DNA of 64,000 bases from NCBI GenBank assembly GCA_000092065.1, contig CP000583.1. One strand, 5' to 3'. Each line of letters starts with the position of its first letter. Positions within the stretch are counted from its first letter, which is position 1. Shown piece by piece: positions 5,477 through 56,614 of the stretch. The notes beneath the pieces were generated by a model that was not told the DNA's origin, searched no databases, and was given only the letters and a program-made list of their open reading frames with translations. Source of the DNA: Ostreococcus lucimarinus. Lineage: Eukaryota. The position numbers and the translations under genes were made by a program.

Positions 5477-8400
5477 CTACGCGACGATGTCGCCGGGCAA
5501 GCCGAGCTTTTCGACGAGCTTGGGGACGACGGCGCCGTCGTCTTTGTCCACCTCGCCGCGAAGATCGGCGAGTTTGACGCCGGAAGCTTTCAATAACGCG
5601 GGCATTTTGTCGGTGTCGTCGCCGGCGAGCGCTTGCACGCGGGCGAGAACGTGAGCGAAGATGGTGAGGGCGAAACCTTCGGCTAAGATGTACCCGGGGT
5701 CTTCCCCCTCCGGCGTGGCTTTACGAAGGGCATCGGCGAGGGAGGCGAGCGTGCAAGAGCCATCGATAACTGGTCCAGCGAGAGAGGCGGCGATGTGGTC
5801 ACCAGCCTTGGGCAAGTCGCACATGACATCTTCGATGTTGTTGAAGAGCGGCGCAAAACCTTCAATCAACTGAGCGCCAGACATCGGGCCGTCAGAGGCG
5901 GCGAGCGCGCGAACGAGCCCGTACGCAGCCTCCCAGTCCATGTCGCGACGCTCAAAGCTCGTCGTCAAGAAGTATTCGATGAACGCAACGATGCGTCGCG
6001 GGTCCCACGTTGCGATGACCTTAACGGCTTCGCTGGTGTCCTTATCGTCATAAAAGTACTCCGTCGTCTTCTTGCGCTCAGCAATGAAAGCTGCGTCGTC
6101 GACCATGGCCTTCTCCTCCGTCGCCACCTTTGGCACAGGTACCGCCGCAGGCTTAGACTCAGCCGCTGAAAGTGTGCCTCGCGGCTGCGGAATGCTCGAT
6201 CGAGCGTCCATCTCGCGTGCGCCGCCGCCGCCTCTGACATCACCTCCCCCACGCTCGCGCTCGTCGCGCACGCCACTACCACCCGCACCACGTCGATCGC
6301 CACCGCCGAATGCACCTCGCGATTCGGTGCGTTGGAATCCGCCTGATCGATCGTCGCCACCTCGTGGCGCGCCACGGCTCGGGGGACGATCAAAGTCGCC
6401 GCCTCGGCGACTGTCGCTTCGCGGCATGGCACCAAATGAACCAGTGCGCTCGGGGCGACCGCCGGCACGGCGCGTTTGCTCCATGGCTGCGCGTTGTGCG
6501 TCGCGGTGAACGTCTTCAATCTTCTTCGGGCCTTCTTCCTTGCGACGCTCGCGCCACCCCTTGGCGCGAGTGTCCATGACGTCTTGCAACATGAATCGAT
6601 GACGAGAAGACATCTCTTCAGATTTGCTCAACACTTCCATGCGGCGGAAGTACGCATCCATGTACGCCTTGGCTTTTTGGTGATCAAGTTGACCGCCAAC
6701 AGTAGTCATGAGCTTACACAAAGCCTCCACGTCTTCCTCGTTCGGAGTCTTTTCGCCCTCGCCTAGAAGCTTCATGATGCACGTATGCATAATGCGTTCG
6801 GTGAGCATTGACTTTTTGAATAATTCACCGATGAAACGAATGTTACCGAGCATGCGTCTGCGCGCCTGGAGAAGTCTGTCCTCTCTCTTCAGTTGCTTGC
6901 GTCGCTCTTCGAGCGCAAGCTCCTCCTCAGTCTTCGGCTTTGGCGGTTCATCGATTTCACCATCCTCGAGCTCCTTCTCAGTCTCGGACTTTTCTTCACC
7001 CTCTTCACCCTCTTTCTTGTCGTCGTCTTCATCGTCACCCGCTTCAGCCTTGGCGATGGCTTTGTCGCCAGATTCGAACTCTTCTTGGCACTTGTTAAGA
7101 AGTACGCGCTTGAACGTGATAGCTTGTTGTCCCTCCGGCGCAGCGGGATCTAAGAATTCTACGCCCTCGCTCAAGAAGCGATCAGAAAGCACGCGACACA
7201 ACTCGGCGTACAAAGAAGAGAAGGTGGGCTCTTGAAGCGCCTTTTCGAACAATTGTCCGATGAGTCCGACCAAAGTGATGGCTTCGGTGATGCCGACGTC
7301 GAGAAGCTTCTCGAGAAGCTTCTCAAAGTTATCAGGTGTAAGCTTGTTGAGAATCGCCTTGAACGAACGCTGACGTTTCTGTTCTTCATCGTCCACGGTA
7401 CCAATGACGTACTTGTTATCTGTCTTGTGCAACTTCGGGAGCTCGCCTGCTGGGATGCGATATTGCGACTGGTTGTATCCGCCGCCACCGCGACGATCGC
7501 CGCGACGACCACCTTCGCCCGCGGGCAACTGTCGATGCGCCCACTTATCATCTCCTTTTTTACCGTCGTAACCACCGCCACCGCGGCTTCCACCGCCTCG
7601 ACGACCGCCGCCACCGCCGCGACCGCCACCGAACGATTGCACTCCCGGCGGACAAATGAAACCAGGCACGGGCCAGTAGTCAATGTCATCAGGAACGGTC
7701 CAATTCGCTGGCGTTGTTTGTGCGATCGGGGCATCGCGCATGGCTTTGAGCTCATCCACAGTGTACTTGCCATCGGCAGGTTTCGCCGCGAGGGTGAAGT
7801 CTGTAATCGGCGGCGGCAAGCGCGAGCGCTTCACGTCGGCGGCGGATCCAACGTCAGAGCCAGCGTCGGAGCCGATGCTCGAGACAGATTCCGACGTCGC
7901 GAGCTGCACCCCAGCCACGGCTTCGGCGAGCTCCTCGACGACTTTGTGCTTGGGCGGTTCGGGCGCCTTGGGCGCTTCCTCTTGCTTGGGAGGCTGCGGC
8001 TTGGGCGCTTCGGGAGCCTTGCGCAAAATGTCCGCCGCCGTCGGCGCCACGGGTTTCACCGGCGCCGGCGCGGGTGCCGGCACTTCCGCGGCTTTCGGTG
8101 CGACCGGTTCGGGCGCGGGCGCGGGCGCGGGCGGCGCCGCGGGCTTGGCCGCCATCGCCGCAAAGTTGATCGGCGGCGGCACCGCCGGCGCGGACGCGGC
8201 CGGCGCGACTGGCGCCGCCGGCGCCGCCGGCGCCGGCGATGCGACACCCGCAGGCGCCGCCGCTGCGACAGCAGCGGGCGACGCGCTCGCCGCGGGAGGC
8301 GTCGACGACACCGGCTTCTCAACCTTGACCTCTTGCTTCGTCTTCGGGTTAACAATCTTGATCGCCTTGCTCGCCACCTTTGTCGGCGGCGTCGACGGCG

Positions 8401-8827
8401 TCGACGGCGGTTTGATCCCCGGCGGCTTCGCGTACGCCGGCATTCCCATCGGTGGCATTCCCATCATCATCCCCGGATGAAACGGCGCTCCTCCCTGCAC
8501 GAACATCTGCCCCGGAGCCATCCCCGGCGCGCCCGGCTTCCCGCCCGGCGGCATCATCCCCATCATCGGTCCTCCCGGCATCGGTCGACCCCCCGGCGGC
8601 ATCCCCGGCATCCCCATTCCCGGTCCTCCCACCCCGGGCTTTCCTCCCCCGCCCTTCGCCATGTTCATCGTCCCGAACATGAACTGTTGCGGCGGCATGC
8701 CGCTCCCCGCCGCGCTCGCGATGACCTTCTTCTCCTCCTCCGTTCCCTTCGCCCCCCCCCCGCTCGCGTTCCCGCGCGGTTGCGGCACTCCCGGCGCCTG
8801 ATTACGATTCGGCATCGCGCCCGACAT
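5477..8827 (-). CDS. EIF4G: Eukaryotic translation initiation factor 4G (MIF4G, MA3 and W2 domains)
   Basis: A 1116-aa ORF with a real ATG. The N-terminus is Gly/Pro/Met-rich, and a long A/P-rich linker follows. The MIF4G core reads KAILNKLTPDNFEKLLEKLLDVGITEAITLVGLIGQLFEKALQEPTFSSLYAELCRVL. A glutamate-rich segment, an MA3-like region and a C-terminal W2-like region then follow. Plus-strand ORF 7232..9604 is its antisense shadow. Confidence 0.9.
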   Translation of the reverse strand: MSGAMPNRNQAPGVPQPRGNASGGGAKGTEEEKKVIASAAGSGMPPQQFMFGTMNMAKGGGGKPGVGGPGMGMPGMPPGGRPMPGGPMMGMMPPGGKPGAPGMAPGQMFVQGGAPFHPGMMMGMPPMGMPAYAKPPGIKPPSTPSTPPTKVASKAIKIVNPKTKQEVKVEKPVSSTPPAASASPAAVAAAAPAGVASPAPAAPAAPVAPAASAPAVPPPINFAAMAAKPAAPPAPAPAPEPVAPKAAEVPAPAPAPVKPVAPTAADILRKAPEAPKPQPPKQEEAPKAPEPPKHKVVEELAEAVAGVQLATSESVSSIGSDAGSDVGSAADVKRSRLPPPITDFTLAAKPADGKYTVDELKAMRDAPIAQTTPANWTVPDDIDYWPVPGFICPPGVQSFGGGRGGGGGRRGGGSRGGGGYDGKKGDDKWAHRQLPAGEGGRRGDRRGGGGYNQSQYRIPAGELPKLHKTDNKYVIGTVDDEEQKRQRSFKAILNKLTPDNFEKLLEKLLDVGITEAITLVGLIGQLFEKALQEPTFSSLYAELCRVLSDRFLSEGVEFLDPAAPEGQQAITFKRVLLNKCQEEFESGDKAIAKAEAGDDEDDDKKEGEEGEEKSETEKELEDGEIDEPPKPKTEEELALEERRKQLKREDRLLQARRRMLGNIRFIGELFKKSMLTERIMHTCIMKLLGEGEKTPNEEDVEALCKLMTTVGGQLDHQKAKAYMDAYFRRMEVLSKSEEMSSRHRFMLQDVMDTRAKGWRERRKEEGPKKIEDVHRDAQRAAMEQTRRAGGRPERTGSFGAMPRSDSRRGGDFDRPPSRGAPRGGDDRSGGFQRTESRGAFGGGDRRGAGGSGVRDERERGGGDVRGGGGAREMDARSSIPQPRGTLSAAESKPAAVPVPKVATEEKAMVDDAAFIAERKKTTEYFYDDKDTSEAVKVIATWDPRRIVAFIEYFLTTSFERRDMDWEAAYGLVRALAASDGPMSGAQLIEGFAPLFNNIEDVMCDLPKAGDHIAASLAGPVIDGSCTLASLADALRKATPEGEDPGYILAEGFALTIFAHVLARVQALAGDDTDKMPALLKASGVKLADLRGEVDKDDGAVVPKLVEKLGLPGDIVA

Positions 8828-9363
8828 CTCTCGAGTCGTCCCTCGCGTCTCCGCGCCCTCCGCGCGCGTCGCGCGCGCCGATCGATCGCCGACGCTCGCC
8901 TCGCCGCCGCCGATCGACGCGCCGCGCGCCGTCGCTCGCCGTCGCTCGCGGTCGCTCGCGTCCGCCGAGTCGTCGCGCGCTCGGATCGTCGTCGACCGAT
9001 CGGCGCTCGCGTCGAAGTCGGACGTGCGCGAGACGCGCCGTCGTTCTGCCGTCGCCGCGCCGCGCGCGCGTCGCCTCGTCGTCGGGCGAGGTCAAAACGC
9101 TCGGTGATTAGGGTCACGCGCGCACATGGCCTCGCGCGCGTCGAGACTACGGCGTCGCGCGTCCTCGTGCGTTTATCTCGATCGACGCGCGCCGTCGATC
9201 GCGGTCGCGCGATCGATCGACGCCTCGAGGGTCGACGCGCGCGCGCGATCGAGGTTCGATCGCGGGTTCGATCGACGCGGGCGCGCGCGGGGCGTCGCGC
9301 GGCGCGGCGCGGCGCGGCGCGGCGCGCGAGACGACGACGCGCGACGACGCGAGGCGACGCGGG

Positions 9364-10419
9364 ATGGACGCGCGCGCGACGTCGAGGGCGTCGGCGTGGA
9401 CGCGCGCGCGCGAGACGCGCGCGAGGGGCGAGCGACGCGCGGCGAGCGGCGACGGCGCGCGCGCGCGGGCGAACGCGCGGCGGCGAGCGACGCGCGCGAC
9501 GCGCGCGCGAGGGGCGGAGCACGCGCTGGACGCGCTGTACCTGGGCGGACGCGCCGAGCGGGACGCGCGCGAGCTCGTGCTGCGGATCGGGGAGAGCGAG
9601 GTGAGGCTGGAGACTGGGAAGATTGGGTTGCAGGCGAACGGCGCGGTGTTCGCGAGCGAGGGGGAGACGGTGCTGTACAACACGGCGTGCGCGTCGAGGG
9701 AGTGCACGGGAGATGGGTCGTTCGTGCCGCTGACGGTGAATTACGCGGAGCGGTTCTCGGCGGCGGGGAGGACGTCGGGAGGGTATAAGAAGCGAGACGG
9801 GGGGTTAAGAGAAAACGAGACGCTCAAGGCGCGATTGGTCGATCGGCCGATACGACCGATGATGTACAAGGGATGGGGATACGAAACGCAGGTTTTGCAG
9901 TGGTTGATGAGTTTTGACGCCGAGCGATCGACGGATGCGCTGGCGATCACGGCGGCGTCGGCGGCGTTGGCGGTGAGCGACATTCCGCTGAAGAAGCCCG
10001 TCGTGGGCGTTCGAGTGGGTCTGATGCCTGGCTCGGATGAACCGGTGGTGAATCCGACGTCGGAACAAATGAAACAATCGAGATTGGACTTGGTGCTCGC
10101 CGGCACGGACGAGGCGGTGCTCATGATTGAGGGCTTTTGCGACTTTTTGACCACGGATGAAATGTTGCGAGCGATTGAAAAGGGCCAAGAGGCGGTGGCC
10201 AAGGCGTGCAAGGAAATTGACGCTTGGGCCGCAACTGTCGCGCCGCAGAAGATGATGCAAAAACTCATCGTGCAGCCCGAGGGCGTGGACGAGGCTGTCG
10301 CTGCGCTCGTGGAGGATGAATTGAAGCAAGCCATCGTCGTTCCGATCAAGCAAGAGCGAGGGGCGATGATTGGCGCCGCCCGCGAACGCGCAGTGGAAGC
10401 TCTTCAAGATGAATTCCAG
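9364..10419 (+). CDS. PNP: Polynucleotide phosphorylase (PNPase), exon 1: transit-peptide-like leader, RNase PH domain 1 and the helical domain
   Basis: ORF 9364..10488 reads LVLRIGESEVRLETGKIGLQANGAVFASEGETVLYNTACASRE...FVPLTVNYAERFSAAGRTSGGYKKRDGGLRENETLKARLVDRPIRPMMYKGW. The conserved sequence ends at ...AVEALQDEFQ, and the next bases are GTACGT (cag|gtacgtcag at 10419/10420). The read-through tail VRQWLRIRCL... is intronic. Confidence 0.85.
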
Positions 10420-10720
10420 GTACGTCAGTGGTTGCGCATACGCTGTCTCGCGCGAATCGGCGCTATTTCTCGCGCGAAACCTCGATAAGTCCCGCGCTCT
10501 ACCGAATAGTCGCAGCCGTTTCTCTCGAGAACTTGTTGGTTGCGGCTCAACTGCGAGCGCGTAAAGAAACGTGAATGCTTCGAACGGGCGCCCAGCCCAC
10601 CTTGGTGTCGCAGCCGAGTACTTCTGGATCCGCCCTTTGCACGCATTGCAAATTCTTGACGACGCCGCGAGCGAGACGGAACCGACTGACTTATGTACAC
10701 TTTTTCACACATCGTCGCAG
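10420..10720 (+). other. Spliceosomal intron 1 of the PNPase gene (301 nt; GTACGT donor, CTGAC branch point, ...tcgtcgcag acceptor)
   Basis: Exon 1 ends in phase 0 after Q (cag). The acceptor cag|gcttccgcc restores the frame at [10 protein letters not shown] of ORF 10571..11365, whose listed start is a GTG artefact. The branch-point-like CTGAC lies about 35 nt upstream of the acceptor. Confidence 0.75.
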
Positions 10721-11229
10721 GCTTCCGCCGTAATCAACGCGTGCGGCAAAATTGAGTCACGCGCCCTTCGCGACGTGATCCGAACCAAAGGTCGTCGTCA
10801 AGATGGTCGCACGACGTCGATGATTCGTCCGATTGCGTGCGAGGCGGGTATACTTCCTCGAACGCATGGCAGCTCGTTATTTACTCGCGGCGAAACGCAA
10901 GCCATCGGCGTCGCGACTCTCGGCGGTAGTCAGGATGCTCAGCGTCAAGACGACGTCGAAGCGGGCGAAGACAAACGCTTCATGTTGCACTACTTCTTCC
11001 CTCCGTCATCTGTTGGCGAAACTGGTCGCACGGGTGGCGCATCCCGACGTGAGATTGGTCACGGAAACTTGGCTGAACGCGCGCTCATGCCCATCCTTCC
11101 ATCGGAGGAGGACTTCCCTTTCGTGTGCAAACTGGAAAGCACAATCACGGAAAGTAACGGTTCCTCGTCAATGGCCACTGTCTGCGCGGGCACGCTCGCT
11201 TTGCTCGATGCCGGTGTTCCTATTAAAAG
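10721..11229 (+). CDS. PNP: PNPase exon 2 (RNase PH domain 2)
   Basis: It reads [69 protein letters not shown]...[19 protein letters not shown]. This matches the bacterial PNPase second RNase PH domain ([23 protein letters not shown] and LLDAGVPIK). The exon ends in phase 2 (AG) before GTGCGG. Confidence 0.8.
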
Positions 11230-11531
11230 GTGCGGGTTTGGCGACATAGTCGTCGCGGAAATATTTTTCGAAAAAGCCAGGTCCTTAAGAACGCTCTTCG
11301 TTGCGCCGCTTTTGTGGTGTATGGAGAGAGATCGAGTCATAACTTGGCGACATTCAGATGCATAGCGACGCGTTTTGCGTCGTTTATTTGCTGCTGCGCT
11401 AGCGGTTGAACCGTGGAACGGACGATTCTTCAACTGTCCCGCGCTGTATTCAAACGCCGCGCGGAAATTTGTTTCTCGCGTCGCGCTCGCTCTCTCAGTC
11501 ACTGACCTTTTTTTATATTTTCAATTCGCAG
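11230..11531 (+). other. Spliceosomal intron 2 of the PNPase gene (302 nt; GTGCGG donor, CTGAC branch point, ...caattcgcag acceptor)
   Basis: The donor reads aaaag|gtgcgggttt. The acceptor ttcgcag|gaaagtcgcgggtatcgccATGGGC gives the codon AG+G = R, followed by KVAGIAMGLIL. This reproduces the universally conserved PNPase motif VAGIAMGL that follows PIK. Confidence 0.7.
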
Positions 11532-12438
11532 GAAAGTCGCGGGTATCGCCATGGGCTTAATTTTGGGTTCTGAAGCCGCGGGCGGTGGCGATGAGCTCGA
11601 GCCCATCGTTCTCACCGATATCTTGGGCTCTGAAGACGCGCTCGGCGACATGGATTTTAAAGTTGCAGGCGACAAGGACGGTATCACCGCGTTCCAGATG
11701 GATATCAAGGTCGAAGGTATCACGATCGATGTCATGAAAACCGCGCTCGAAGAGGCGCAAAAGGGACTCGTGCACATCCTCGGCGAGATGGAAAAATGTG
11801 ACCCTGCGCCCGCGGGCGCCACGAGCAAGTATGCCCCGCGCATCGCTTCCATCGCGGTGCCGGAGAAGTACTTTGGCAAAGTCATCGGTAAGGGTGGGGA
11901 GACCATTCGTTCCATCATGGAGAAGACTGGTGCTGAGAACATCGATGTTAACAAAGAAAAGGAGATGGTGTTTGTCACTGGTGGCGCTGACGCGGACCTC
12001 GATGCGGCGATTCGGATGATCGAGGGCATGATTGTTGAACCAGAGGTGGGTAAAATTTATCGCGGCTGCGTCGTGAAGAAGGTTGTTGAATTCGGCTGCT
12101 TTGTTGAATATTTGCCGGGTCTCGAAGGACTTGTCCATATCAGTGAGCTCGACGTTTCACGCGTGCCAAACGTCTCCGACGTGACGTCCGAAGGAGCGGT
12201 GATGGATGTCAAGATTATCGCGGTCGATAATCGTGGTAAAACCAGTCTGAGTCGCAAAGAAGTTTTATTGGAGGAAAACCCAGAACTCGCCGCGGCCGGT
12301 TCTATGTCCGACGACAGCGCGAATGAAAGGAACGGTGGTGGCGGCGGACGAGGTGGTGGCGGACGCGGGGGTCGCGGTGGTCGTGCAGGACCGAAACGTG
12401 ATTCGGGCGGCCCCAAGCGCGACTCGGGCGGGTTCTAA
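11532..12438 (+). CDS. PNP: PNPase exon 3 (end of PH domain 2, KH domain, S1 domain and a C-terminal RGG-rich tail)
   Basis: ORF 11551..12438, extended 19 nt upstream to the acceptor. It reads ...SEDALGDMDFKVAGDKDGITAFQMDIKVEGI, then a KH motif (VIGKGGETIRSIMEKTG) and an S1 motif (GKIYRGCVVKKVVEFGCFVEYLPGLEGLVHISEL), then GGGGRGGGGRGGRGGRAG and the stop at 12436-12438. Confidence 0.85.
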
Positions 12439-12504
12439 TTTTTCTGATTTTTCGCGCATTTTTATCGGCATTACTAGATGTAGAGCTAGGCTATTGCGAT
12501 TGAC

Positions 12505-15033
12505 TTAAAGCTTAAAGCGCTCCTCGCTAGCAGATCCCCGAGTAGACCCCCGAGTTCCTTCACGAAACACCTTCTTCGGCGTCGAATTTTTCACCGACTT
12601 GGCTTTGGGCTTCCCCTTTTCGTCTTTGAAGGCGTGGTCCGCGTGTCGATGCGCGTCCAGGCGCTCGATGAGATCAGCTTTGCGTCCCTTTGTCGGTAGC
12701 CCATGGCATTTCAACTCCAGCTTGAGTTCCCCCACTTGCTTCTTTTCCCACGCTCGCCGCGGATCCACCGCCTCGTCTTCTGCTTCCTCTGGGTCGGCGT
12801 TCATCGTAGCGTCGGCGTTCGTGTCGTCGTCTTCATCTTCGTCTTCATCTTCGTCTTCATCTTCGTCTGGTTCGGACTCTGATTCAGGCTCTGAGCCAGC
12901 GTTCGAATCAGACGAATCTGATACATCCGCTTCTCGGCTTCGCTTCTTCCCCGACGACGGACTCCGTGCTGCTGGTGTTTCTTCGGAACGCCTCTCTTTT
13001 CGTGGCAAATTTTCTTGACATCCATTCGTATCATCACCTTTTCGCCCTTCCAGAGCCGAGATATCGATATGTCGAAACTTTGGCTTGATTTCGTCCTCTT
13101 CGCTTTCACGCTTTATCTCCACGCCCTCCTTCGGAGCTTCTGAGCCATCCTCCACGTTTGCATCGGCATCCGCGTCGGTATCAGCTTTGGCTTTGAATTT
13201 AGCGTGTTGCTGTTTGGCGTTATTTTGCCTATCCAGGACTCCAAGCGCGGCGGCGAGGCGCGATCCTGAGCCTGCCGCCGCACGAGCCGCGCCACCTCTC
13301 TCCGCGATGCCAAGCGCCGCTTCCTTCGCTTGCATGTCCATTAAGGGCTTCAATAAATCACCTGCATTCGGCGGATAAAACAAACGCTCAGCTTTTTTGC
13401 GATGGTGTTCGGCACGCAGCAAGACATCCGACTCGGTGGCGGCGTCGTCAGATTCGTTTTCATCCTTTGACGTGATGGAATCGCCTTCAGATGAATCCTT
13501 CGTCGGGCGAAGTGCTCCATGCGCGGCCGTTTCTTGCAGATGCTTTCGTGCCTTTATGGCAAACTTTCCATAGTCCATATGCCAACGAAGTCTCAGAGTT
13601 TCCAACATGCTTTGCACCGTGCCGAGGACGCCTCCAGTACCTCCCGCCTCGTGCTGCTCGATCCCCGATCCGAAGTCCACGTCTGTGCCGTACGGCATGA
13701 ACGGAGTGACGGCCAGAATGTGCGACTGCGCTTCAGCCTCCCATACGACAGTTCTATCGTCTACGATGACCGTGAGTTCGGCGGGAAAGTGAGCGCCGCA
13801 CGTCGTGCGCAAAGATTTCATCTCGTCCACGCCGACGGACTTGACTCTGTGCTCGAGTTGTGCGGGTTCAAACACCGCCCCGTGCGGATCTAAAATCCTA
13901 CAAACCTCCCGCGCGTAGTTATTGGAAGCTTTTGTACAAACAAAAACTTCAGCGCGCTTTGATTGACGACCGTCGGATCCGGCCAAGTACTTTCGCATCT
14001 CCTCCCAACCCGGACGCACGTGCACGAGCATCGCCGTGGCGGGGTTTGCCGGGTTGATCACCGTGAACACGAGCATCGCGCCCTTGATGTGCGGACTCGG
14101 AATTCGAATAATGTTTCGCAATCTTTGCATACCGTTGGGCAAGCTCTCGATCTCTGGAATCGTCACCGATCGTCTGTTGTTGTGCGTCACCGCGCCTTCG
14201 GAACAATACTGGTACAGCATCGCTCTATCGGTTTGCAAGCGCCGCAGCGCTTGCTCGCACGCAATCTTATCCTGCTTCACCTCTTCAATCATCACCGTCG
14301 AAACCCTCGGATTCGTCACGTCGAACTTCATCAGGCTCACCATTTTCAACCGCGTCGCCTCGATGCGTCGATCCAACATGTGCAGCGTCGTCGACTGCAC
14401 GAGCGTCTCGTCCAAATCAAACACCACCACCAAGCGATTATGTTTCAACAACGGTTGCGCGTACGCCGGCGCCATCTCATCCGTTTTAAACGCCACAAAC
14501 CGCGTCGTCGCGGACGCTCCTCCGTCCGCCCGCCTCTCATCTCCCGTCCCCTCGCCTCCGTCCTCTTCGCCTTCGCGCGTCGCCTCCGGCACCGCCACCA
14601 AGTGCAGTTCCCCGCTCGTCCTCCCCTCCCCATCCTTCATCTGCACCACCGCGCTCTTATTCTCCCGCGTCATCTCCGCGTGTAACTCCTCGATCGCTCG
14701 TCTCTCCTCCTCCTCGCACGTCGCGCACGGCGCGCATCGAAACGACGGCGCGCCCCCGCTCGAGCGCGCGAGAAAGTGCAGCGCCGCGAGCGGATCGAAC
14801 GCGTCTCGAGATTCCCAGAACCCAACGATCGCCATCTCCCCCCCCGCGCCGCGCAATTCTTCCAGCAGCGTCTCGTTCGCCGTTCGCTTCGCGCCCGCGT
14901 TCGCTTCGCGCGCGTCGCCGTCGTCGTTCGCGCGCGGATCCTCCGCGACGCCCTCGAGCGCGTCGCACGCGAGCCTGAGCCCCGTCTGACGCTCGCGCTT
15001 CACCACGCTCGCCGTGAGCGCGACCGGCGGCAT
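12505..15033 (-). CDS. FCP1-homology (CTD-phosphatase-like, HAD DxDxT) domain protein with a C-terminal SAP DNA-binding motif
   Basis: An 842-aa ORF with a real ATG at 15033. The phosphatase motif reads LVVVFDLDETLVQSTTLHML within an FCP1/NIF-like domain. Acidic and serine-rich linkers follow. The C-terminal SAP-like helix pair reads WEKKQVGELKLELKCHGLPTKGRKADLIERLDAH. The true start could be a downstream Met. Confidence 0.65.
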   Translation of the reverse strand: MPPVALTASVVKRERQTGLRLACDALEGVAEDPRANDDGDAREANAGAKRTANETLLEELRGAGGEMAIVGFWESRDAFDPLAALHFLARSSGGAPSFRCAPCATCEEEERRAIEELHAEMTRENKSAVVQMKDGEGRTSGELHLVAVPEATREGEEDGGEGTGDERRADGGASATTRFVAFKTDEMAPAYAQPLLKHNRLVVVFDLDETLVQSTTLHMLDRRIEATRLKMVSLMKFDVTNPRVSTVMIEEVKQDKIACEQALRRLQTDRAMLYQYCSEGAVTHNNRRSVTIPEIESLPNGMQRLRNIIRIPSPHIKGAMLVFTVINPANPATAMLVHVRPGWEEMRKYLAGSDGRQSKRAEVFVCTKASNNYAREVCRILDPHGAVFEPAQLEHRVKSVGVDEMKSLRTTCGAHFPAELTVIVDDRTVVWEAEAQSHILAVTPFMPYGTDVDFGSGIEQHEAGGTGGVLGTVQSMLETLRLRWHMDYGKFAIKARKHLQETAAHGALRPTKDSSEGDSITSKDENESDDAATESDVLLRAEHHRKKAERLFYPPNAGDLLKPLMDMQAKEAALGIAERGGAARAAAGSGSRLAAALGVLDRQNNAKQQHAKFKAKADTDADADANVEDGSEAPKEGVEIKRESEEDEIKPKFRHIDISALEGRKGDDTNGCQENLPRKERRSEETPAARSPSSGKKRSREADVSDSSDSNAGSEPESESEPDEDEDEDEDEDEDDDTNADATMNADPEEAEDEAVDPRRAWEKKQVGELKLELKCHGLPTKGRKADLIERLDAHRHADHAFKDEKGKPKAKSVKNSTPKKVFREGTRGSTRGSASEERFKL

Positions 15034-15180
15034 CGTCGCCGTCGTCCGCGTCCGCGCGCGGCGCGCGGGCGTCGCGCGGCGCGACGCGAGGCGGCGAATG
15101 CCGCCGACGCGCGCGCGACGACGCGGTCGAGCGCGGCGTCAGAGCGCCGCGCGCGGACGCCGCGCGCGGGCGAGGCGGCG

Positions 15181-15426
15181 ATGGCGGCGCGCGCGGCGGC
15201 GCGCGCGGCGGCGCGCGACGGCGCGACGCGCGACGCGCGCGCGCGCGCGGGACGCGCGCGGGAACGGCGCGCGTCCGCGAGGCGAACGCCGATGGTTCGC
15301 GCGACGACGCGGGACGAGCGCGCGCGCGTGTACATCGAGCACACGGATGCGTACGGCGTGGTGTTTTACGCGAATTACTTCGCGTTCGCGTCGAACGCGG
15401 CGGAGGCGCTCGGGAGAGTCGCGGCG

Positions 15427-17379: not shown

Positions 17380-18948
17380 TCACGCACTCAAGTTGAGCGT
17401 GCGTTCAACGGCGTCGTTCCAACGCGCGTAGTTCGTTTCGCGAGCTTCGATGGATAGTTTCGGGACGAACTCTGTGATGTCCCGATCACCATCACCTTCG
17501 CTGACGTTCGCGAAAACGTCTTCCTCTGTCATCAACCCGGCGCCGATGGCTGCGGCGTACGCCGCGCCTCGAGCCGTCGTCTCCACATCCGAGGGACGAA
17601 TGACATTCAAACCGATGCAATCGGCTTGAATTTGCATGAGAAGATTATTTGCACTCGCGCCGCCGTCAACTTTAAGCGCACTCAGCGAATGCGAGGTCGA
17701 TTCAGCCATGTCTTGACGCATGGCGTCGAGAACGTCTCTCGATTGAAACGCGATGGCGTCTAGCGCGGCTCGCGCGATGTGTCCTTTGTTGACGTACTGC
17801 GTCAGCCCCACAATCACACCACGCGCGTCTTCGCGCCATCTTGGCGCAAAAAGACCGCTAAATGCGGGGACAAACGATACACCAGCGGCATCTTCCACGG
17901 TGCCGGCGAGACTTTCGATATCGCTCGCCGTTTTAATCAACCCGAGATTATCGCGTAACCAGTGCACGACCGCGCCCGCGATTGCGACAGAACCCTCCAA
18001 AGCATACTTTGGGGTTTTGTCTCGTCCTCCGAGCTGCCACGCCATAGTCGTGAGCAGCCCGTGCTTCGAGCGCACGATGGTTGAACCCGTATTGAGAATC
18101 ATGAAGCAACCGGTGCCGTACGTATTCTTCGCCTGACCAACGTCGCATCTCTGTCCGAGCGTGGCCGATTGCTGATCACCGATGCATCCCGTAATTTTGA
18201 TCCCTCCTAAACCCTCGATGCTCGCATCGATCTCGCCAAAATCCTCGGCGCACGATTTGATCTCCGGCAGCGCGTCCATCGGCACGCCGAGCGTCTCGCA
18301 CGTCGCCGCGTCCCACGTCAAATCATCCAATCGCATCAGCAGCGTTCGCGACGCGTTCGAAACATCCGTAATGTGCGCTTTCCCGCCGGTGAGTTTATAC
18401 ACCAACCAACTCTCGATCGTTCCAAAGCACAAATCTTTTTCGCGCGCCGCCTCGCGCACGCCCTCGTCGTTTTCCAACAACCACCGCATCTTCATCGCGC
18501 TAAAATACGTGCTCACCGGCAACCCACACGTCGCGACGAACGCGTTCTTATCCCCATCGCACGCCTCTCTCACCACCGCATCGCACGTCTCCCGCGTGCG
18601 CGAGTCCAACCACACCACCGCGTTCGCCAGCGCCGTCCCGTCGCTTCGCCGCCACGCGCACGTCGTCTCTCGCTGATTCGTGATCCCCACGCACGCCAGA
18701 TCGCTCGCCGTCACGCCCGCCGATCGCAGCGCCTCCCTCGCGCACGTCAGCGCGCGCTCAAAGATCTCCTCCGCGTCGTGCTCGCACCATCCCGGCGCCG
18801 GATACCGTTGCGCGTGCTCCCGCTGCGCCGACGCGATCTTCACGTACGTCCTCGCGTCCCGCGGCGCCGTCGTCTCGTACACGACGAACCGCGTGGACGT
18901 CGTCCCCTGATCCAGCGCGCCGACGCACGTCGCGCGCCGACGCGCCAT
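17380..18948 (-). CDS. GK: Glycerol kinase (FGGY carbohydrate kinase family)
   Basis: ORF 17380..19143 contains ALDQGTTSTRFVVY...GWCEHDAEEIF...ACVGITNQRETT...YFSAMKMRWLLEN...GLTQYVNKGHIARAALDAIAFQSRDVLDAM...LKVDGGASANNLLMQIQADCIGLNVIRP. The listed start is a GTG. Real ATGs are at 19140, which gives a 64-aa R-rich extension, and at 18948 (MARRRATCVGALDQGTT), which aligns with the bacterial GlpK N-terminus. Confidence 0.88.
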   Translation of the reverse strand: MARRRATCVGALDQGTTSTRFVVYETTAPRDARTYVKIASAQREHAQRYPAPGWCEHDAEEIFERALTCAREALRSAGVTASDLACVGITNQRETTCAWRRSDGTALANAVVWLDSRTRETCDAVVREACDGDKNAFVATCGLPVSTYFSAMKMRWLLENDEGVREAAREKDLCFGTIESWLVYKLTGGKAHITDVSNASRTLLMRLDDLTWDAATCETLGVPMDALPEIKSCAEDFGEIDASIEGLGGIKITGCIGDQQSATLGQRCDVGQAKNTYGTGCFMILNTGSTIVRSKHGLLTTMAWQLGGRDKTPKYALEGSVAIAGAVVHWLRDNLGLIKTASDIESLAGTVEDAAGVSFVPAFSGLFAPRWREDARGVIVGLTQYVNKGHIARAALDAIAFQSRDVLDAMRQDMAESTSHSLSALKVDGGASANNLLMQIQADCIGLNVIRPSDVETTARGAAYAAAIGAGLMTEEDVFANVSEGDGDRDITEFVPKLSIEARETNYARWNDAVERTLNLSA

Positions 18949-19457
18949 CGCGGCGTCGCGCGATGTCGATCGTCGCGCGCCGCGCGCGCGACCGCGCCGT
19001 CGATCGCGCGATCGCGCGTCGATCGACGGTCGAGGGTTCGTTGACGCCGCGCGAAGCTCGACGCGTCGATCGAGGTCGGTCGCTCCGATCGATCGCGGTG
19101 CGCGGCGGCTCGCGCGCGGACGCGGCGTCGCGCGACACATCACGGCGACGACGCGCGCGATGGCGACGCAATTCGCGCGCGCGAGCGCGCTCGAGACGTG
19201 CGTGTGACGCGCGACCGCGCGACGCGCGCGCGCGTAACGCGCGACCGCGCGCGCGTCGGAGGCGTCGCGCGCGGATAAAGCCCTGCGATGACGATGACGA
19301 TGGCGCGGCGCGACGACGACGACGACGAAGACGACGACGCGAGACTGACGAGGGCGCGAACGACGACGACGATGGCGACAGACGCACGACGCTTCGATCG
19401 AACCGCGGACGACGAAGCGTGGAGACGCGAGCGAGCAAGGTGGAGAGGAACCCGCGG

Positions 19458-30933: not shown

Positions 30934-33900
30934 TTAGCGTTTGGCGCGCGCGGCGCGTGATTTTGCCTTAGTTTTGTTCGCCTCGCGACTCGCCGCGGCG
31001 GTAGGGCGGAGCTCACCGCGCGCGAGCTCAGTTTTAACCTCGAGCGAGCCGCGGGAGATGCCGTGCGCTCGGCCATTCGCATCCGGTAATTTCGAGAGCC
31101 AACTCGCGAGTTCGCTCGAGGACGTGCGCCCGTTCGCTAGGTCGCGATAACGCGATAGAAGCTCGGGGACCACACTCGCGGGCTCGTCCACGAGCTCGAC
31201 GCGGAAGTGGCAAATGCCGGCGTCGATGAATGTTTTCAGGTACTCCGCGCCCGTTTGCGCCTGAGCGTTGAAGACGGTGTTTCGGCACCCCATGTCTGCG
31301 AGGACAAGATGGTCGGCACCGCGGTCGTCTCGCAAGTGCAAGTGCTTGCTCTCGCATGGATGGCCACAATCTTTGTACGAGTTTCCGTCGGACATGAATC
31401 GACAGAACACGCAGTGTTCGGTATGGAAGATTGGCAAATGCTGATGGACGATGACTTCGAGCTTGGACGCGCCCGCGGGACCGAGGGCGACTGCGAGCGC
31501 GCGTTGCTGCTCGGCGTTCAAGTCATGCGTTGGCGTCAAGCGCTCGAGTCCTGACCTCAGAAAGACGTCCGCACCGATTGCGTTGGCGGCGTTTAATGAA
31601 AAGTCACCACGAAGCGGTGGAATGACGACATCGGCGTCCGAGCGCCCGAGTTCGAGCAGTGTCTGTAATAAACCCGCCGATCGCACGAGCAGGGCGTCGG
31701 CGCCTAGATTGAGATAGTATCGCCACAGTTGCTCTTCTTCTGGCTTCAGCACGCGCGGCGTGGCGACCACGGCTGTTTTCCCCGCGGCTTGAACGAGACG
31801 AACCGTTTTTTGCAATCCGTGAACTTCTAAAAAGTCCAAAGCGATTTCGTCCACGCCATCGACAGTCACCGCAGCTTCGGCTTGCGCGCGCGTGCGACAG
31901 AGCACAGAGATGGACGGCAACCCGCTCGTAGGATTCACGCGCGGTTCTTTGCTCGCTCCTTTATCGCGTTGATCGATGATATCGCCCCACCATGCGTTGC
32001 CGACGAGTTCGTCGACGACTTCGCGCACCGCCATACCTTCGGCTCGATTCGGGCCACCGTCTCGCCGCGCTCGCAGGAGCGACTCGACTGCGTCCCGCCG
32101 CGCAGCTTTGATCTCGCCCGGTGATATGTAAAGTCCGTCCGTAGCCTGCGCGTCGACGTCTGCGATACCTCGAAGGGTGGAGACATCCACACTTGCCACC
32201 ACGAGCGGCGTTCCGCCGAGTTCGCCGATGGCTTTCTTCAACGAATTTTCGTCGAGCGCCTTGTTTTGACTCTTCTCCAACACAGAACCAGTGCGAGCTT
32301 CTCCGAATCGTCCGGCATCATCGATGATTTTGATGACTAGCGGTTCACCGATCGCACCACTCGCGACGACGGTGCACGGATCTCGACGACCGTCGCGACT
32401 CGGCTCGGCCTCCGCGGGAACCATCTTCGCGAGCTTGGCCTCGAGCGTCGGGTCGGATGTTCTCCACACTAGCTGTCCAACCTCGACCCGGTTGAAATCG
32501 ATTTGGTTCGCACCGAACGTAACGGTGTACTCGCCCGCGGTGATGCGGTCGTCGTCTTTACCGCCCACGAGCGCTCGATTGCGATCAAAAATTTCGTAGA
32601 CGCGACCGCCCTCCTCCTTCTCTTGCGGCTCGCCTCGATCGATGACGACGCCATCGCCGCGCTTCATCGCCGCGCCGTCGCTCGTGCGTACGACTATCTC
32701 ACCGTTCGAGCGTCTGCCGTCCGGCTTGATCACGCGCACGATTTCTCCGAGCAAGACGCCGCGATGCCTTGGGGCTCGTCCGCGAACGAGATTTTGATGC
32801 CGCGGTCCCTCCAGGAAACCGCGCGTCAATCCATCGAAATCCGCGTCTTGGCCGCGCGCGAACACTTGCGTGAGTTCCAGTCGCTGCTCTTTCGAGAGCA
32901 ATTCGGAGCGCTTCACGTCGCGTCCGCTCTGCATGGCGTCCCACGCCAAGTCCACCGCGCGGCGATACGCCTGCGTGGCGATGGCGACGTACTCTGGACC
33001 TTTCAATCGTCCTTCGATTTTAAAGCACCCCACGCCGGATTCGATGAGCTCGGGCACGAGCTCGACCGCCATTAAATCTTGCGGTGACAACAAATATTTT
33101 ACATCCCCCATCTCGCGCAGCTCGCCGTCGACGACCAATCCGTACGGCATTCGACACGCCTGCGCGCACTGACCGCGATTCGCCGACCGACCGCCCCAGG
33201 CTTCGCTCGAAAAGCACTGTCCACTGTAGCTCACGCACATCGCCCCGTGCACGAACGCCTCGACCTCGACGTCCGGACAGCTCGCTTTCACCGCGGCGAT
33301 GTCCGTCACGCTCAACTCTCGACCGACGACGACGCGCTTGCACCCGAGCTCTCGCGCGAAGCGCGCGCCCTCCGCGCTCGTCACGCTCATCTGCGTCGAC
33401 CCGTGTATGGGCAAATTCGGCGCCGTCTTCCGAATCAACCGCGTCACCCCCACGTCCTGCACGATCACCGCGTCCACGCCCGCGCGCGCCACGCCTCGAA
33501 TCAGCGTTTCCGCCAACCGCAACTCCTCGTCGAACACCAACACGTTCATCGTCACGTACGCTCGCCGCCCGCGCGACTTCACGTACGCCATCACCTCATC
33601 CAGCTCATCCAGCGTAAAATTACTCGCCCGCGCGCGCGCGTTCAGCGCGTCGAGCCCAAAGTACACGCAATCCGCGCCGGTCTCGATCGCCGCGCGCAAC
33701 TGCGGCCATCCGCCCGCCGGCGCGAGCACCTCCGGCTTCGCGCGCGCCGCCGCCGCCGCCGTCCCCTCCTCGCGCGCGGCGTCCTCGCGCGCGGCGTCGC
33801 GCCACGACGTCGACGACGATAACTCGCGCGACTCTCTCAGGTATCGCGCGCCCTTGCGCGCGCCCTCGGCGCGCGCGCGCGGCGTCGTCAACGTTCGCGC

Positions 33901-33990
33901 GCCGTCGCGGCGGCGGCGCGCGTTCGCGCCTCGCGTCGCGCGTCGCGCGCGCGGCGCGCCGCCGACGCGCGGCGACGCGTCCGCGAGCAT
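30934..33990 (-). CDS. Large peptidase-U32-family protein with two tandem U32 (collagenase / RlhA / TrhP-like) domains and a transit-like leader
   Basis: A 1018-aa ORF with a real ATG at 33990. The first domain reads KPEVLAPAGGWPQLRAAIETGADCVYFGLDALNARARASNFTLDELDEVMAYVKSRGRRAYVTMNVLVFDEELRLAETLIRGVARAGVDAVIVQDVGV...HGSTQMSVTS...FVHGAMCVSYSGQCFSSEAWGGRSANRGQCAQACRMPY. The second domain reads ...EIALDFLEVHGLQKTVRLVQAAGKTAVVATPRVLKPEEEQ...HQHLPIFHTEHCVFCRFMSDGNSYKDCGHPCESKHLHLRDDRGADHLVLADMGCRNTVFNAQAQ. Plus-strand ORFs in 33084..34216 are its shadows. Confidence 0.72.
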   Translation of the reverse strand: MLADASPRVGGAPRARRATRGANARRRRDGARTLTTPRARAEGARKGARYLRESRELSSSTSWRDAAREDAAREEGTAAAAARAKPEVLAPAGGWPQLRAAIETGADCVYFGLDALNARARASNFTLDELDEVMAYVKSRGRRAYVTMNVLVFDEELRLAETLIRGVARAGVDAVIVQDVGVTRLIRKTAPNLPIHGSTQMSVTSAEGARFARELGCKRVVVGRELSVTDIAAVKASCPDVEVEAFVHGAMCVSYSGQCFSSEAWGGRSANRGQCAQACRMPYGLVVDGELREMGDVKYLLSPQDLMAVELVPELIESGVGCFKIEGRLKGPEYVAIATQAYRRAVDLAWDAMQSGRDVKRSELLSKEQRLELTQVFARGQDADFDGLTRGFLEGPRHQNLVRGRAPRHRGVLLGEIVRVIKPDGRRSNGEIVVRTSDGAAMKRGDGVVIDRGEPQEKEEGGRVYEIFDRNRALVGGKDDDRITAGEYTVTFGANQIDFNRVEVGQLVWRTSDPTLEAKLAKMVPAEAEPSRDGRRDPCTVVASGAIGEPLVIKIIDDAGRFGEARTGSVLEKSQNKALDENSLKKAIGELGGTPLVVASVDVSTLRGIADVDAQATDGLYISPGEIKAARRDAVESLLRARRDGGPNRAEGMAVREVVDELVGNAWWGDIIDQRDKGASKEPRVNPTSGLPSISVLCRTRAQAEAAVTVDGVDEIALDFLEVHGLQKTVRLVQAAGKTAVVATPRVLKPEEEQLWRYYLNLGADALLVRSAGLLQTLLELGRSDADVVIPPLRGDFSLNAANAIGADVFLRSGLERLTPTHDLNAEQQRALAVALGPAGASKLEVIVHQHLPIFHTEHCVFCRFMSDGNSYKDCGHPCESKHLHLRDDRGADHLVLADMGCRNTVFNAQAQTGAEYLKTFIDAGICHFRVELVDEPASVVPELLSRYRDLANGRTSSSELASWLSKLPDANGRAHGISRGSLEVKTELARGELRPTAAASREANKTKAKSRAARAKR

Positions 33991-34426
33991 CGCGGCGACG
34001 CGCGCGCGACGTCCTCGCGGCGCGCGCGCGTCGACGGCGCGCGACGCGTCGATGTGGCGTCACTTCGCGGCATGCGCGCGGTGCTCGCGCACGCGCGCGA
34101 CGCGACGCGCGCGCGGCGCGACGTCGCCGCGCACGTGCACGTGCGGGTGCGTCGCCGCGATCGACGCGCGGACGCGCGCGCCGGACGCGCGACGCGCGCG
34201 ACGCGAGAGTGACTGACGACGCGACGGCTCGGCGTCGGCGCAGGATTCGACGACGACCGGCGCGGGGGCGCTCGTGGTCGACGCGCTCGTCGATGGACAC
34301 GCGCGGGACGTTCGCGCGGGCGACGCGGCGTCGCGAGCGGTCGTGCGCGCGCGATGGACGCGAGGGCGGGCGCGCGGGACGCCGACGGCGGATGTGGACT
34401 TGGCGGCGACGCGAGGCGAACGCGCG

Positions 34427-46321: not shown

Positions 46322-46725
46322 CGCGGTTTCTCTCGCCGCTCTCGCGTCGCGTCGTTCGCGTCGCTCGCTCGATCCGGCGTCGTCCGTCGTCCGTCGCGGC
46401 GTCGTCTGGCGGTCGCGCCGCCGCCGCGGCGTCGCGGTGGTTCGTCGCGCGCGCGTCGACCCTCGCGTCACGGTTCGATTTTCGCGATCGAACCTCGACG
46501 CGTCGATCGCCGCGCGTCGAGCGCGTCGATCGCGCGCGCGACAAAGAGACGCGCTGACTGTTTGCCCACACGCGAGTTCGACGCGCGCGCGAGGGGACCG
46601 ACGCGGCGGCCCGCACTCGACGTCGCGCGCGCGTCGCGGCGACGAGCGCGCGGCGGGAGGCGCGGGAGACGCGTCCGCGAGACGCGCGTCGACGCGGCGA
46701 TTCGATCGACGCGCGCGCGGGCGCG

Positions 46726-48462
46726 ATGGCGAGCGCGCGCGCGGGACTCGGCGGTCGGTCGTTAGGCGGCGACGGCGACGCGCGACGCGCGACGCGCGCG
46801 CGCGCGCGGATGCGCGGCGCGAGGCGCGACGGGAGACGCAGCGCGCGCGTCGAGCGCGCGCGCGCGACGGGAGGGACGCGCGCGCGCGACGGCGCGATGG
46901 GGCGCGCGAGAGGGGGACGCGGGGAGGAGGCGCGAGAACGCGGCGACGTCGCGGCGCGCGCGAGAGCCGAACGACGCGATCGACGGGACGCGGTCGCGGC
47001 GAGCGGGAGCTCGAAGACGACGCGCGAGGATCGGGACGAGGGCGAGGAGGATCCGGACGAGGCGTGGGCGTTTGAGTTTCCGAAGTCGGCGAGCGACGTC
47101 ACGACGCTCTGGCGAGGCGCGCCGAGTCGGTATCGCGTGCTCTTCGTCACGGTGTTCGCGTTCATCGTGTGTAACATGGATAAGGTGAATATTTCGGTGG
47201 CGATCATTCCCATGGCGCGGGAGTTCGGGTGGACGAGCACGCAGGCGGGGTTCGTGCAGAGCGCGTTTTTTTACGGTTTCGCGGCGTCGCAGTTACCGGG
47301 CGGGTACTTGTCGACGAAATTCGGTGGTGCCAAGGTGTTGCCGATCGGGATGTTGATTTTGTCGTTGGCGACGATCGCGATTCCGATCGTCGGCGTGAAC
47401 GAGCAGAGCATTTTCCTGTCGCGCGTGCTCGTGGGTTTGGGCGAAGGCGTGGCGCCGAGCGCGGCGACGGATATCATCGCGAGAAGCGTCAGCGTGGGCG
47501 AGCGTTCGCGCGCCGTCGGGTTCGTGTTCAGTGGGTTCAACATAGGTTCGGTGCTTGGTTTGGGGGTGGCGCCACTATTGATAGAGGCGACGAATTGGAG
47601 GACGGTGTTCGCATTCTTCGGCTCGTGCGGTTTAGTTTGGAGTTTTTGGGCTTGGAAGCTGTACGGCGACGGCGGGATGGTTGACGAAAGTTACAAGGAC
47701 GACGGCGTCACGGGTTTGACGGGTAAGCGCATATTCACCGTCGACGCAAAGGCGATAGCGAGCGGGAAGAGCCCGGCGGAAGACCCTCCGGTGCCGTGGG
47801 GGGAGTTTATATCGAATCCGTCGGTGCGCGCGCTCATGTACGTGCACTTTTGCAACAACTGGGGCTTCTACGTCCTACTCGCTTGGCTTCCGACGTACTT
47901 TACCGACGAGCTCGGGGTGACACTGACGAACGCATCGCTGTTGACTCTGCTTCCGCCGCTCGCGAACGTCGCGATGGCGTCCGTCGCCGGTCCGACTGCG
48001 GACCGCCTCATCGGCAGCGGCATGGAGATCACGAAGGTGCGTAAAACGATGCAAGCAGTCGCCTTCATGGGACCGGCGCTCGCCATGGGCTCGGCCGCAT
48101 TGGTAGATCAGCCGGTGGCGACCGTGGGTCTGCTCACGCTCGGCCTTTCGCTAGGCGCGTTTTCGTACGCGGGTTTGTACTCAAACCATCAAGATTTGTC
48201 GCCCAAGTACGCGAGTATCCTGTTGGGCATGACAAACACGTGCGGCGCGCTTCCGGGCGTCATCGGCGTTCCGTTGACTGGGTACTTGATCAAAGAAACG
48301 GAAAATTGGGAGCTTAGCATGTTCGTTCCGGCGATGTTCTTCTACTTTACGGGAACGCTCGTATTCAGCAAGTACGGCAGCGGCGATCGACAAGCGTTCA
48401 CGGGACAACCTATGCCCGAACCAGGCGAGATTCCGCCATCGTGCGATGGCGGCGGACATTAA
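46726..48462 (+). CDS. MFS transporter of the SLC17 / plant ANTR-PHT4 (anion/phosphate transporter) type, with an R/A-rich leader
   Basis: A 578-aa ORF with a real ATG. The 12-TM core reads YRVLFVTVFAFIVCNMDKVNISVAIIPMAREFGWTSTQAGFVQSAFFYGFAASQLPGGYLSTKFGGAKVLPIGM...SRVLVGLGEGVAPSAATDIIA...WLPTYFTDELGVTLTNASLLTLLPP... The mature start is uncertain. Confidence 0.78.
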   Translation: MASARAGLGGRSLGGDGDARRATRARARMRGARRDGRRSARVERARATGGTRARDGAMGRARGGRGEEARERGDVAARARAERRDRRDAVAASGSSKTTREDRDEGEEDPDEAWAFEFPKSASDVTTLWRGAPSRYRVLFVTVFAFIVCNMDKVNISVAIIPMAREFGWTSTQAGFVQSAFFYGFAASQLPGGYLSTKFGGAKVLPIGMLILSLATIAIPIVGVNEQSIFLSRVLVGLGEGVAPSAATDIIARSVSVGERSRAVGFVFSGFNIGSVLGLGVAPLLIEATNWRTVFAFFGSCGLVWSFWAWKLYGDGGMVDESYKDDGVTGLTGKRIFTVDAKAIASGKSPAEDPPVPWGEFISNPSVRALMYVHFCNNWGFYVLLAWLPTYFTDELGVTLTNASLLTLLPPLANVAMASVAGPTADRLIGSGMEITKVRKTMQAVAFMGPALAMGSAALVDQPVATVGLLTLGLSLGAFSYAGLYSNHQDLSPKYASILLGMTNTCGALPGVIGVPLTGYLIKETENWELSMFVPAMFFYFTGTLVFSKYGSGDRQAFTGQPMPEPGEIPPSCDGGGH

Positions 48463-55993: not shown

Positions 55994-56614
55994 GAGCGCG
56001 CTCGCGGAGATCTGGTCGTCGAAAGTCGCGCTCGGTCAGCGCCTCGTCGTCGCCTCGTCGGCGCGCGTCCGCGCGTCGCGCGCGCGCGCCTCGACGCGTC
56101 GCGCCGCGGGGCGTCGCGGAGGGCGTCGCGTCGCGCGCGCCGTCGCACCTCGTCGCCGGACGCCGCGCCGGGCGCCATCGCGCGTCGTCGTCTGTCGCGC
56201 GCGTTTCGCGACGCACTGCGCGACGCGCGTCGGGCATGGAGCCGCGCGCGCGCGGCGCGGCGGCGCGGCGGGGGAAGGCCAAGGTGCGCCGCGACGAGAC
56301 GCGCGACGCGCGACGCGCGACGCGCGCGACGAGGGCGCGCGCGACTGATTTCGATTTGATTCGCGACGCAACAGCTCGACGCATTTCGCGCGCGGGAACG
56401 CGGCGACGCGCGCGCGGACGCGTCGAACGATGGACGACGGACGATTGACTTGGCGCGCGCGACGCGCGACGGCGCGCGCGACGCGCGAAGCTCGAGCGAC
56501 GGCGCGGTGGACGCGACGACGACGGCGACGGCGACGACGGCGGCGGCGGCGGCGCGCGCGACGGACGACGCGAGCGAAGACGCGAGCGAAGACGCGCGGG
56601 ATGAGTTCGAGGAA

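Follow-up and report, generated by a model that had tools for sequence, protein, structure and literature searches.

Two introns of a nuclear PNPase gene of Ostreococcus lucimarinus each host a conserved H/ACA snoRNA

The 64,000-nucleotide (nt) stretch of Ostreococcus lucimarinus DNA studied here (contig CP000583.1; "the window" below means this whole stretch) contains, at 9335-12438 on the + strand, a gene for polynucleotide phosphorylase (PNPase) with two U2-type introns. These introns are not empty, a point that an initial annotation of the same DNA had left unmentioned: each hosts a conserved H/ACA small nucleolar RNA (snoRNA), orthologous to the O. tauri snoRNAs Ot-HAsno26 (intron 1) and Ot-HAsno27 (intron 2), hereafter sno26 and sno27. 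To this overall reading we assign a probability of about 0.92. It builds on what was observed directly, namely the splicing of the gene, the identity of its product to a deposited protein, the orthology of the introns and of their snoRNAs, and the covariation that supports the snoRNA folds. The features of the locus are as follows.

9335..9363, + strand: 5' untranslated region of the PNPase mRNA, taken from the 5' ends of the transcript contigs L004, L005 and L006 at 9335, 9340 and 9341
9364..10419, + strand: exon 1, coding part, codons 1-352; Arg/Ala-rich N-terminal extension, first RNase PH domain (PH1) and start of the helical domain
10420..10720, + strand: intron 1, 301 nt, phase 0; donor GTACGTC, branch motif ACTGAC at 10685-10690, acceptor CGCAG
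10491..10655, + strand: sno26, orthologue of Ot-HAsno26, hairpin-hinge-hairpin-tail, aligned to the published sequence; H box AAAGAA at 10563-10568, AAA plus UUC tail at 10650-10655
10721..11229, + strand: exon 2, codon 353 to the first two bases of codon 522; remainder of the helical domain and second RNase PH domain (PH2)
11230..11531, + strand: intron 2, 302 nt, phase 2; donor GTGCGGG, branch motif ACTGAC at 11501-11506, acceptor CGCAG
11272..11470, + strand: sno27, orthologue of Ot-HAsno27, aligned to the published sequence; 5' hairpin, ACAUUC at 11350-11355, short middle hairpin, 3' hairpin, AAA plus UUU at 11465-11470
11532..12438, + strand: exon 3, coding part; end of PH2, KH, S1, Gly/Arg-rich tail and TAA stop at 12436-12438

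The contig 5' ends between 9335 and 9341 probably mark the start of PNPase transcription, and the ends given for the two snoRNA copies are presumptive, carried over from the mapped ends of the O. tauri RNAs.

The list of open reading frames (ORFs) places three of them on the + strand at 9364..10488, 10571..11365 and 11551..12438, the same coordinates as in the initial annotation, which had read them as consecutive parts of one PNPase split by two introns. The spliced coding sequence (CDS), the Pfam domains, the deposited protein and the transcripts all confirmed this interpretation. We reproduced the proposed junctions (10419/10721 and 11229/11532), intron lengths (301 and 302 nt) and phases (0 and 2), and joining 9364-10419, 10721-11229 and 11532-12438 yielded a 2472-nt CDS with one terminal stop, which codes for 823 amino acids (aa) and not for the 770 given before. 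Stop codons occur in all frames inside both introns, and intron 2 interrupts an Arg codon (AG/G). The ORFs had also been described as lying in three different frames, when they occupy two: ORF1 and ORF3 share a genomic frame (11551 - 9364 = 2187 = 3 x 729), because the intron lengths add up to a multiple of three (301 + 302 = 603), and only ORF2 is frame-shifted. An exact-sequence look-up matched the 823-aa product letter for letter to XP_001416565.1 / ABO94858.1 / UniRef100_A4RTW2 of O. lucimarinus CCE9901; all 823 residues are the same, there is no protein-level difference from the XP_001416565.1 model, and the deposited model therefore has the same exon boundaries. The junctions and the interpretation of the gene in the initial annotation are correct, but the gene model is already public. 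What was offered as a gene-model correction holds for a naive ORF track, which splits the PNPase gene, and not for the public annotation, which already carries this model and needs no correction.

Transcripts were examined in three contigs from three public runs, L004 (SRR23599298), L005 (DRR699222) and L006 (SRR23599309). Both predicted 40-nt exon-exon junctions were present and no intron 21-mer was found. Over the window exons the contigs match at 100% identity, the segments missing from them are exactly 10420-10720 and 11230-11531, as expected from the proposed introns, and each contig encodes the 823-aa protein as one continuous ORF. The comparison amounts to the transcript check proposed in the initial annotation, and its outcome supports splicing exactly at 10419/10721 and 11229/11532. 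These results bear on another explanation of the three ORFs, according to which they represent a frameshifted pseudogene or assembly errors and there are no introns at all. Such an explanation can draw on the raw ORF pattern only. Against it, what the transcripts drop is exactly 301 and 302 nt, bounded by GT and AG; the spliced protein has its full length and follows the solved PNPases collinearly; and an independent metagenome contig (L002) shows the genomic sequence with its introns at 99% identity, which excludes an assembly error. We consider a pseudogene or misassembly extremely improbable, and the PNPase gene is best read as intact and spliced.

The introns carry the splice signals of their genome. 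Outside chromosome 2, the introns of O. lucimarinus confirmed by expressed sequence tags have a GTGCGTG donor and a CGCAG acceptor, 87% of them have ACTGAC as the branch motif, and the branch lies 20-35 nt before the AG (Irimia and Roy, PMC2483917). Both PNPase introns fit these published signals (GT-AG, ACTGAC, CGCAG); the CTGAC motif noted previously was found in both as ACTGAC, its branch A lying 31 nt (intron 1) and 26 nt (intron 2) ahead of the final intron base. The published intron length for this species has a mean of 187-188 nt, or in another survey a mean of 168 and a median of 111 nt (PMC2367439, PMC2483917). The PNPase introns are typical of the genome except for their above-average length.

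At the protein level, Pfam detected two RNase_PH domains, RNase_PH_C, the PNPase helical domain, KH_1 and S1, all above curated cut-offs, and together with structure alignment it gave the five-domain order RNase PH - helical - RNase PH - KH - S1 within one polypeptide. The description of ORF1 as PH1 plus helical domain stands for PH1 only, as the helical domain (PF03726, residues 308-383) spans junction 1. Residues 72-776 align in one stretch to the Caulobacter PNPase 4aid (E = 1e-170). Junction 2 is gapless in this alignment, congruent with the conserved junction that had been claimed, and junction 1 is located where the helical linker varies. In P0001 (817 aa), a relative with 83% identity, the sequence runs on collinearly across the two junctions without the gain or loss of a residue, and the expectation that no residues are missing there held. 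The best named eukaryotic matches are annotated as 'chloroplastic PNPase 1', and the N-terminal extension of ~70 aa may be an organellar targeting peptide.

An H/ACA snoRNA in intron 1 was first predicted from a two-species alignment, before any match to the literature had been made. The prediction was based on a CGCGCUC/GAGCGCG stem followed by ANANNA, on compensatory pairs that close a second hairpin, and on an ANA box three nucleotides before the end. The match came from the medium-size non-coding RNA transcriptome of O. tauri (PMC7671301), whose supplementary FASTA holds both Ot-HAsno26 and Ot-HAsno27; O. lucimarinus 14-16-mers had no match in the supplements of that paper, while shorter motifs did. 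Its Table S3 lists Ot-HAsno26 as an uncapped H/ACA RNA of 164 nt with an rRNA target, in 'intron 1*' of ostta03g00780 ('PNPase, RNA processing'), and Ot-HAsno27 as an uncapped RNA of 202 nt in 'intron 2*' of the same host. The two RNAs map to 136877-137042 and 137646-137849 of O. tauri chromosome 3, accumulate to ~347 and ~59 transcripts per million (TPM), and have snoGPS-predicted 25S targets at U772/U873 and U2109/U2029, respectively (PMC7671301). In Table S5 of the same 2020 paper, O. lucimarinus and O. mediterraneus are recorded with both snoRNAs, and both are scored as absent from Bathycoccus and Micromonas by BLASTN. The snoRNA cargo of these introns is already published for O. tauri, with the O. 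lucimarinus orthologues recorded (PMC7671301). A poison exon, a small ORF and an antisense gene were also considered behind the conserved intron cores, and were dropped once the cores matched the published snoRNAs.

We then compared the folds of the two snoRNAs with what is expected of the H/ACA class. The sno26 sequence forms two hairpins around a hinge with AAAGAA and ends with AAA plus UUC. Compensatory changes affect 17 of its 46 pairs in four lineages, compared with 6.0 +/- 1.9 for shuffled controls and 0-3 where the partners were slid, and 18 of 47 consensus pairs when five lineages are included. The H box fits ANANNA, and reads AUAUUA, AGAUCA or AGAGCA in the other lineages. The fold of sno27 beats all 200 shuffles (z = -3.6), and its three-species fold contains 58 pairs, 9 of them compensatory; the 5' and 3' hairpins are supported, and the strands of the 5'-hairpin internal loop hardly vary among five lineages. 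The 5'-hairpin pocket has its top 15 nt from the box in sno26 and 16 nt from it in sno27, where 14-16 nt are expected for H/ACA RNAs.

Several points weigh against this reading. In the minimum-energy folds, no 3'-hairpin pocket was found at 14-16 nt from the 3' box. AAA, not ACA, stands three nt from the presumed 3' end in both window copies; the same AAA is present in O. tauri sno26, and other lineages show ACA, AUA or AGA. The ACAUUC of sno27 is not a strict ANANNA, and its extra middle hairpin makes this snoRNA atypical. Rfam 15 returned no family for sno26 or sno27, either in 9000-12800 at E <= 10 or in the whole window at gathering thresholds. The accumulation of both RNAs in O. lucimarinus would follow from their orthology with O. 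tauri, and we infer the RNA origin of the Logan runs behind the transcript contigs from the absence of introns and the clustering of 5' ends within six bases. Separately, a sub-threshold match to the bacterial Rfam family RtT lies over sno27 on the minus strand (11315-11454; 27.3 bits vs a gathering score of 45, E = 0.025) and was judged to be chance.

Part of this list would also suit ordinary introns whose cores do not work as snoRNAs in O. lucimarinus but are elements that regulate splicing or expression, or decaying relics of the O. tauri snoRNAs: the 3' boxes are AAA and not ACA, sno27 has no strict ANANNA, an Rfam match is absent, and expression of the snoRNAs is known from O. tauri only. 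However, Ot-HAsno26 of O. tauri ends in AAAUUC too, and yet it reaches ~347 TPM. In addition, the stems are kept by compensatory changes in five lineages and the loop strands are nearly invariant, which is the pattern of a selected, structured guide RNA and not of a relic; the cores are also conserved like coding exons or more, between flanks that cannot be aligned. We regard non-functional cores as unlikely, and favor the reading of both cores as H/ACA snoRNAs.

The conservation of the cores was measured in relatives. In a related Ostreococcus, comparison of the MMETSP transcript L001 with the genomic metagenome contigs L007-L010 (96-97% identical) located the introns at the same positions and in the same phases; in L007 they measure 330 nt (intron 1, GTACGT...CAG) and 321 nt (intron 2, GTGCGT...CAG). 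The orthologous introns align at a central block only, and their flanks are unalignable. Between the window and L007, identity is 0.72, 0.75 and 0.68 in the exons, 0.80 in 10491-10655, 0.70 in 11272-11470 (much higher in its first 90 nt) and 0.28-0.44 in the intron flanks, so that the intron cores are kept as well as the coding exons or better between species.

Further homologues came from L043, L092 and the Tara scaffold L091, which stem from GC-rich relatives (63-69% GC). The transcript L003 encodes a GC-rich PNPase 61% identical to the window protein, and L043, a genomic fragment of this L003 PNPase, has a 437-nt intron at the same phase-0 position, with a diverged sno26 homologue that carries an AGAUCA H box and an ACA box. 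In a 96%-identical transcript, L092, intron 1 is spliced and intron 2 is retained at 1628-2062 (435 nt, GTGAGA...CGCAG), which points to intron retention or capture of pre-mRNA; this intron contains a sno27 homologue with a compensatory change in the basal stem. Both introns and both snoRNA homologues are present in L091 (63% GC), where intron 2 measures 350 nt. A search of metagenome contigs with P0002 recovered almost only bacterial PNPases at 44-53% identity, L043 being the useful locus. The snoRNA homologues in the same introns of GC-rich relatives are only a modest, incremental addition. At slightly better than even odds, the pairing of PNPase with the two snoRNAs may long predate the genus Ostreococcus. 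If the GC-rich lineages are Micromonas- or Mantoniella-like, the snoRNA cargo would have held the two introns in place through the intron loss of the Mamiellales; if true, production of an organelle enzyme that degrades RNA would have been coupled, at the level of transcription, to cytosolic rRNA modification throughout.

The same comparison speaks to the origin of the introns, for which the initial annotation had raised introners, the transposon-like, multi-copy spliceosomal introns known from Micromonas. A recent introner insertion at both sites could account for the nearly equal lengths of 301 and 302 nt, and the organism belongs to the Mamiellales, the order in which introners were described (PMC4540971). 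Congruently with the previous remark that the introns share no obvious sequence, BLASTN of one intron against the other gave short GC-rich chance matches only, and BLASTN of each intron against the 64-kb window for a second copy gave the same kind of matches and nothing else. The introns recur at these sites in four other lineages, namely another Ostreococcus, where codon position and phase agree, two more distant GC-rich relatives and O. tauri, and hence they are old; moreover, the conserved cores of both are snoRNAs. An introner origin was not borne out by these results and is scarcely credible to us, and the introns are better described as old, snoRNA-bearing introns.

As for the working of the locus, the region 9335-12438 (+) is a nuclear gene for an organelle-type PNPase, transcribed as a single pre-mRNA, from which the two canonical U2-type introns 10420-10720 and 11230-11531 are spliced out to give an mRNA for the 823-aa protein with its RNase PH - helical - RNase PH - KH - S1 order. 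Intronic snoRNAs are usually released when the lariat is debranched and exonucleases then trim the RNA back to the assembled small nucleolar ribonucleoprotein. By this route the excised introns would release the H/ACA snoRNAs 10491-10655 and 11272-11470, and these would guide pseudouridylation of 25S rRNA, at sites corresponding to the O. tauri predictions (U772/U873 and U2109/U2029). That the O. lucimarinus snoRNAs guide the same modifications as those predicted in O. tauri is probable by analogy. The snoRNA cargo may also be the reason why two introns of ~300 nt persist in a genome with a mean intron of ~188 nt: we infer that the introns have a similar, above-average length, and have survived in an intron-poor genome, because of the snoRNAs they carry. 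Read in this manner, the locus would illustrate neatly why a eukaryotic genome that ranks among the most compact keeps a handful of longer introns, which is that there are snoRNA genes inside them, a point already published for O. tauri.

The PNPase gene lies between two minus-strand genes, a divergent MIF4G-domain gene upstream (5477-8827) and a convergent NIF-phosphatase/SAP-domain gene downstream (12505-15033); the stop codons of the PNPase and NIF/SAP genes are 67 nt apart (12439-12504). All three transcript contigs, L004-L006, continue from PNPase into the antisense of the NIF/SAP gene (L004 to 13550), which suggests overlapping 3' ends, or unstranded reads that were merged in assembly. 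L004, an environmental transcript contig, is also without 12 nt of the reference, TCGTCTTCATCT, at 12827-12838 in the NIF/SAP gene (minus strand), an in-frame difference in an acidic Asp/Glu repeat, and shows two single-base differences at ~13022 and ~13146.

The window also has very GC-rich (72-75%) CG-repeat stretches, at 8800-9600, ~15050-15320, ~18940-19270, ~33740-34210, ~46360-47050 and ~56030-56600. They lie at gene 5' ends or in divergent intergenic regions and match one another at ~70-75% identity across the window, and one of them codes for the Arg/Ala-rich N-terminus of the PNPase. The whole window (1-64000) contains no tRNA gene and no Rfam family at gathering score, and no rRNA was found in its 64 kb by Rfam at gathering thresholds. 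Among proteins in a large collection, P0158 (747 aa, L091:4001-6244) is a read-through of intron 1 and its snoRNA, and P0025 (459 aa, L002:242-1621) begins before the genuine ATG and stops within intron 1; some such chimeras are named polyribonucleotide nucleotidyltransferase there. Both serve as a warning that prokaryote-style gene calling on algal metagenome contigs feeds intron read-through 'proteins' into large databases.

Finally, we compared the locus with known systems. The solved PNPases (Caulobacter 4aid and 4am3, E. coli 3cdi and human PNPT1 9njb) have the same five domains and align continuously over residues 72-776, with E values from 1e-170 to 1e-113. Compared with them the window PNPase has the Arg/Ala-rich N-terminal extension of ~70 aa and a Gly/Arg-rich C-terminal tail of ~50 aa, and in contrast to the solved bacterial and organellar enzymes it is nuclear-encoded and contains introns. 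Micromonas introner elements (PMC4540971, PMC3879977) are likewise spliceosomal introns of a few hundred nt in a Mamiellales alga, whereas the PNPase introns are single-copy in the window, mutually unrelated, ancient, positionally conserved and snoRNA-bearing. Another close system is the Ot-HAsno26/27 pair of O. tauri, which shares with the window copies the host gene, the introns, the order and the strand, aligns with them over the whole length and has the same hairpin-hinge-hairpin-tail layout. Expression of the snoRNAs was shown in O. tauri only, and the O. lucimarinus copies are known here from sequence. The sno26 RNAs of both species end in AAAUUC, while sno27 ends in AAAUUU in O. lucimarinus and in ACAUUUU in O. 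tauri, and the box after its first hairpin is ACAUUC in the former and ACAUUA in the latter.

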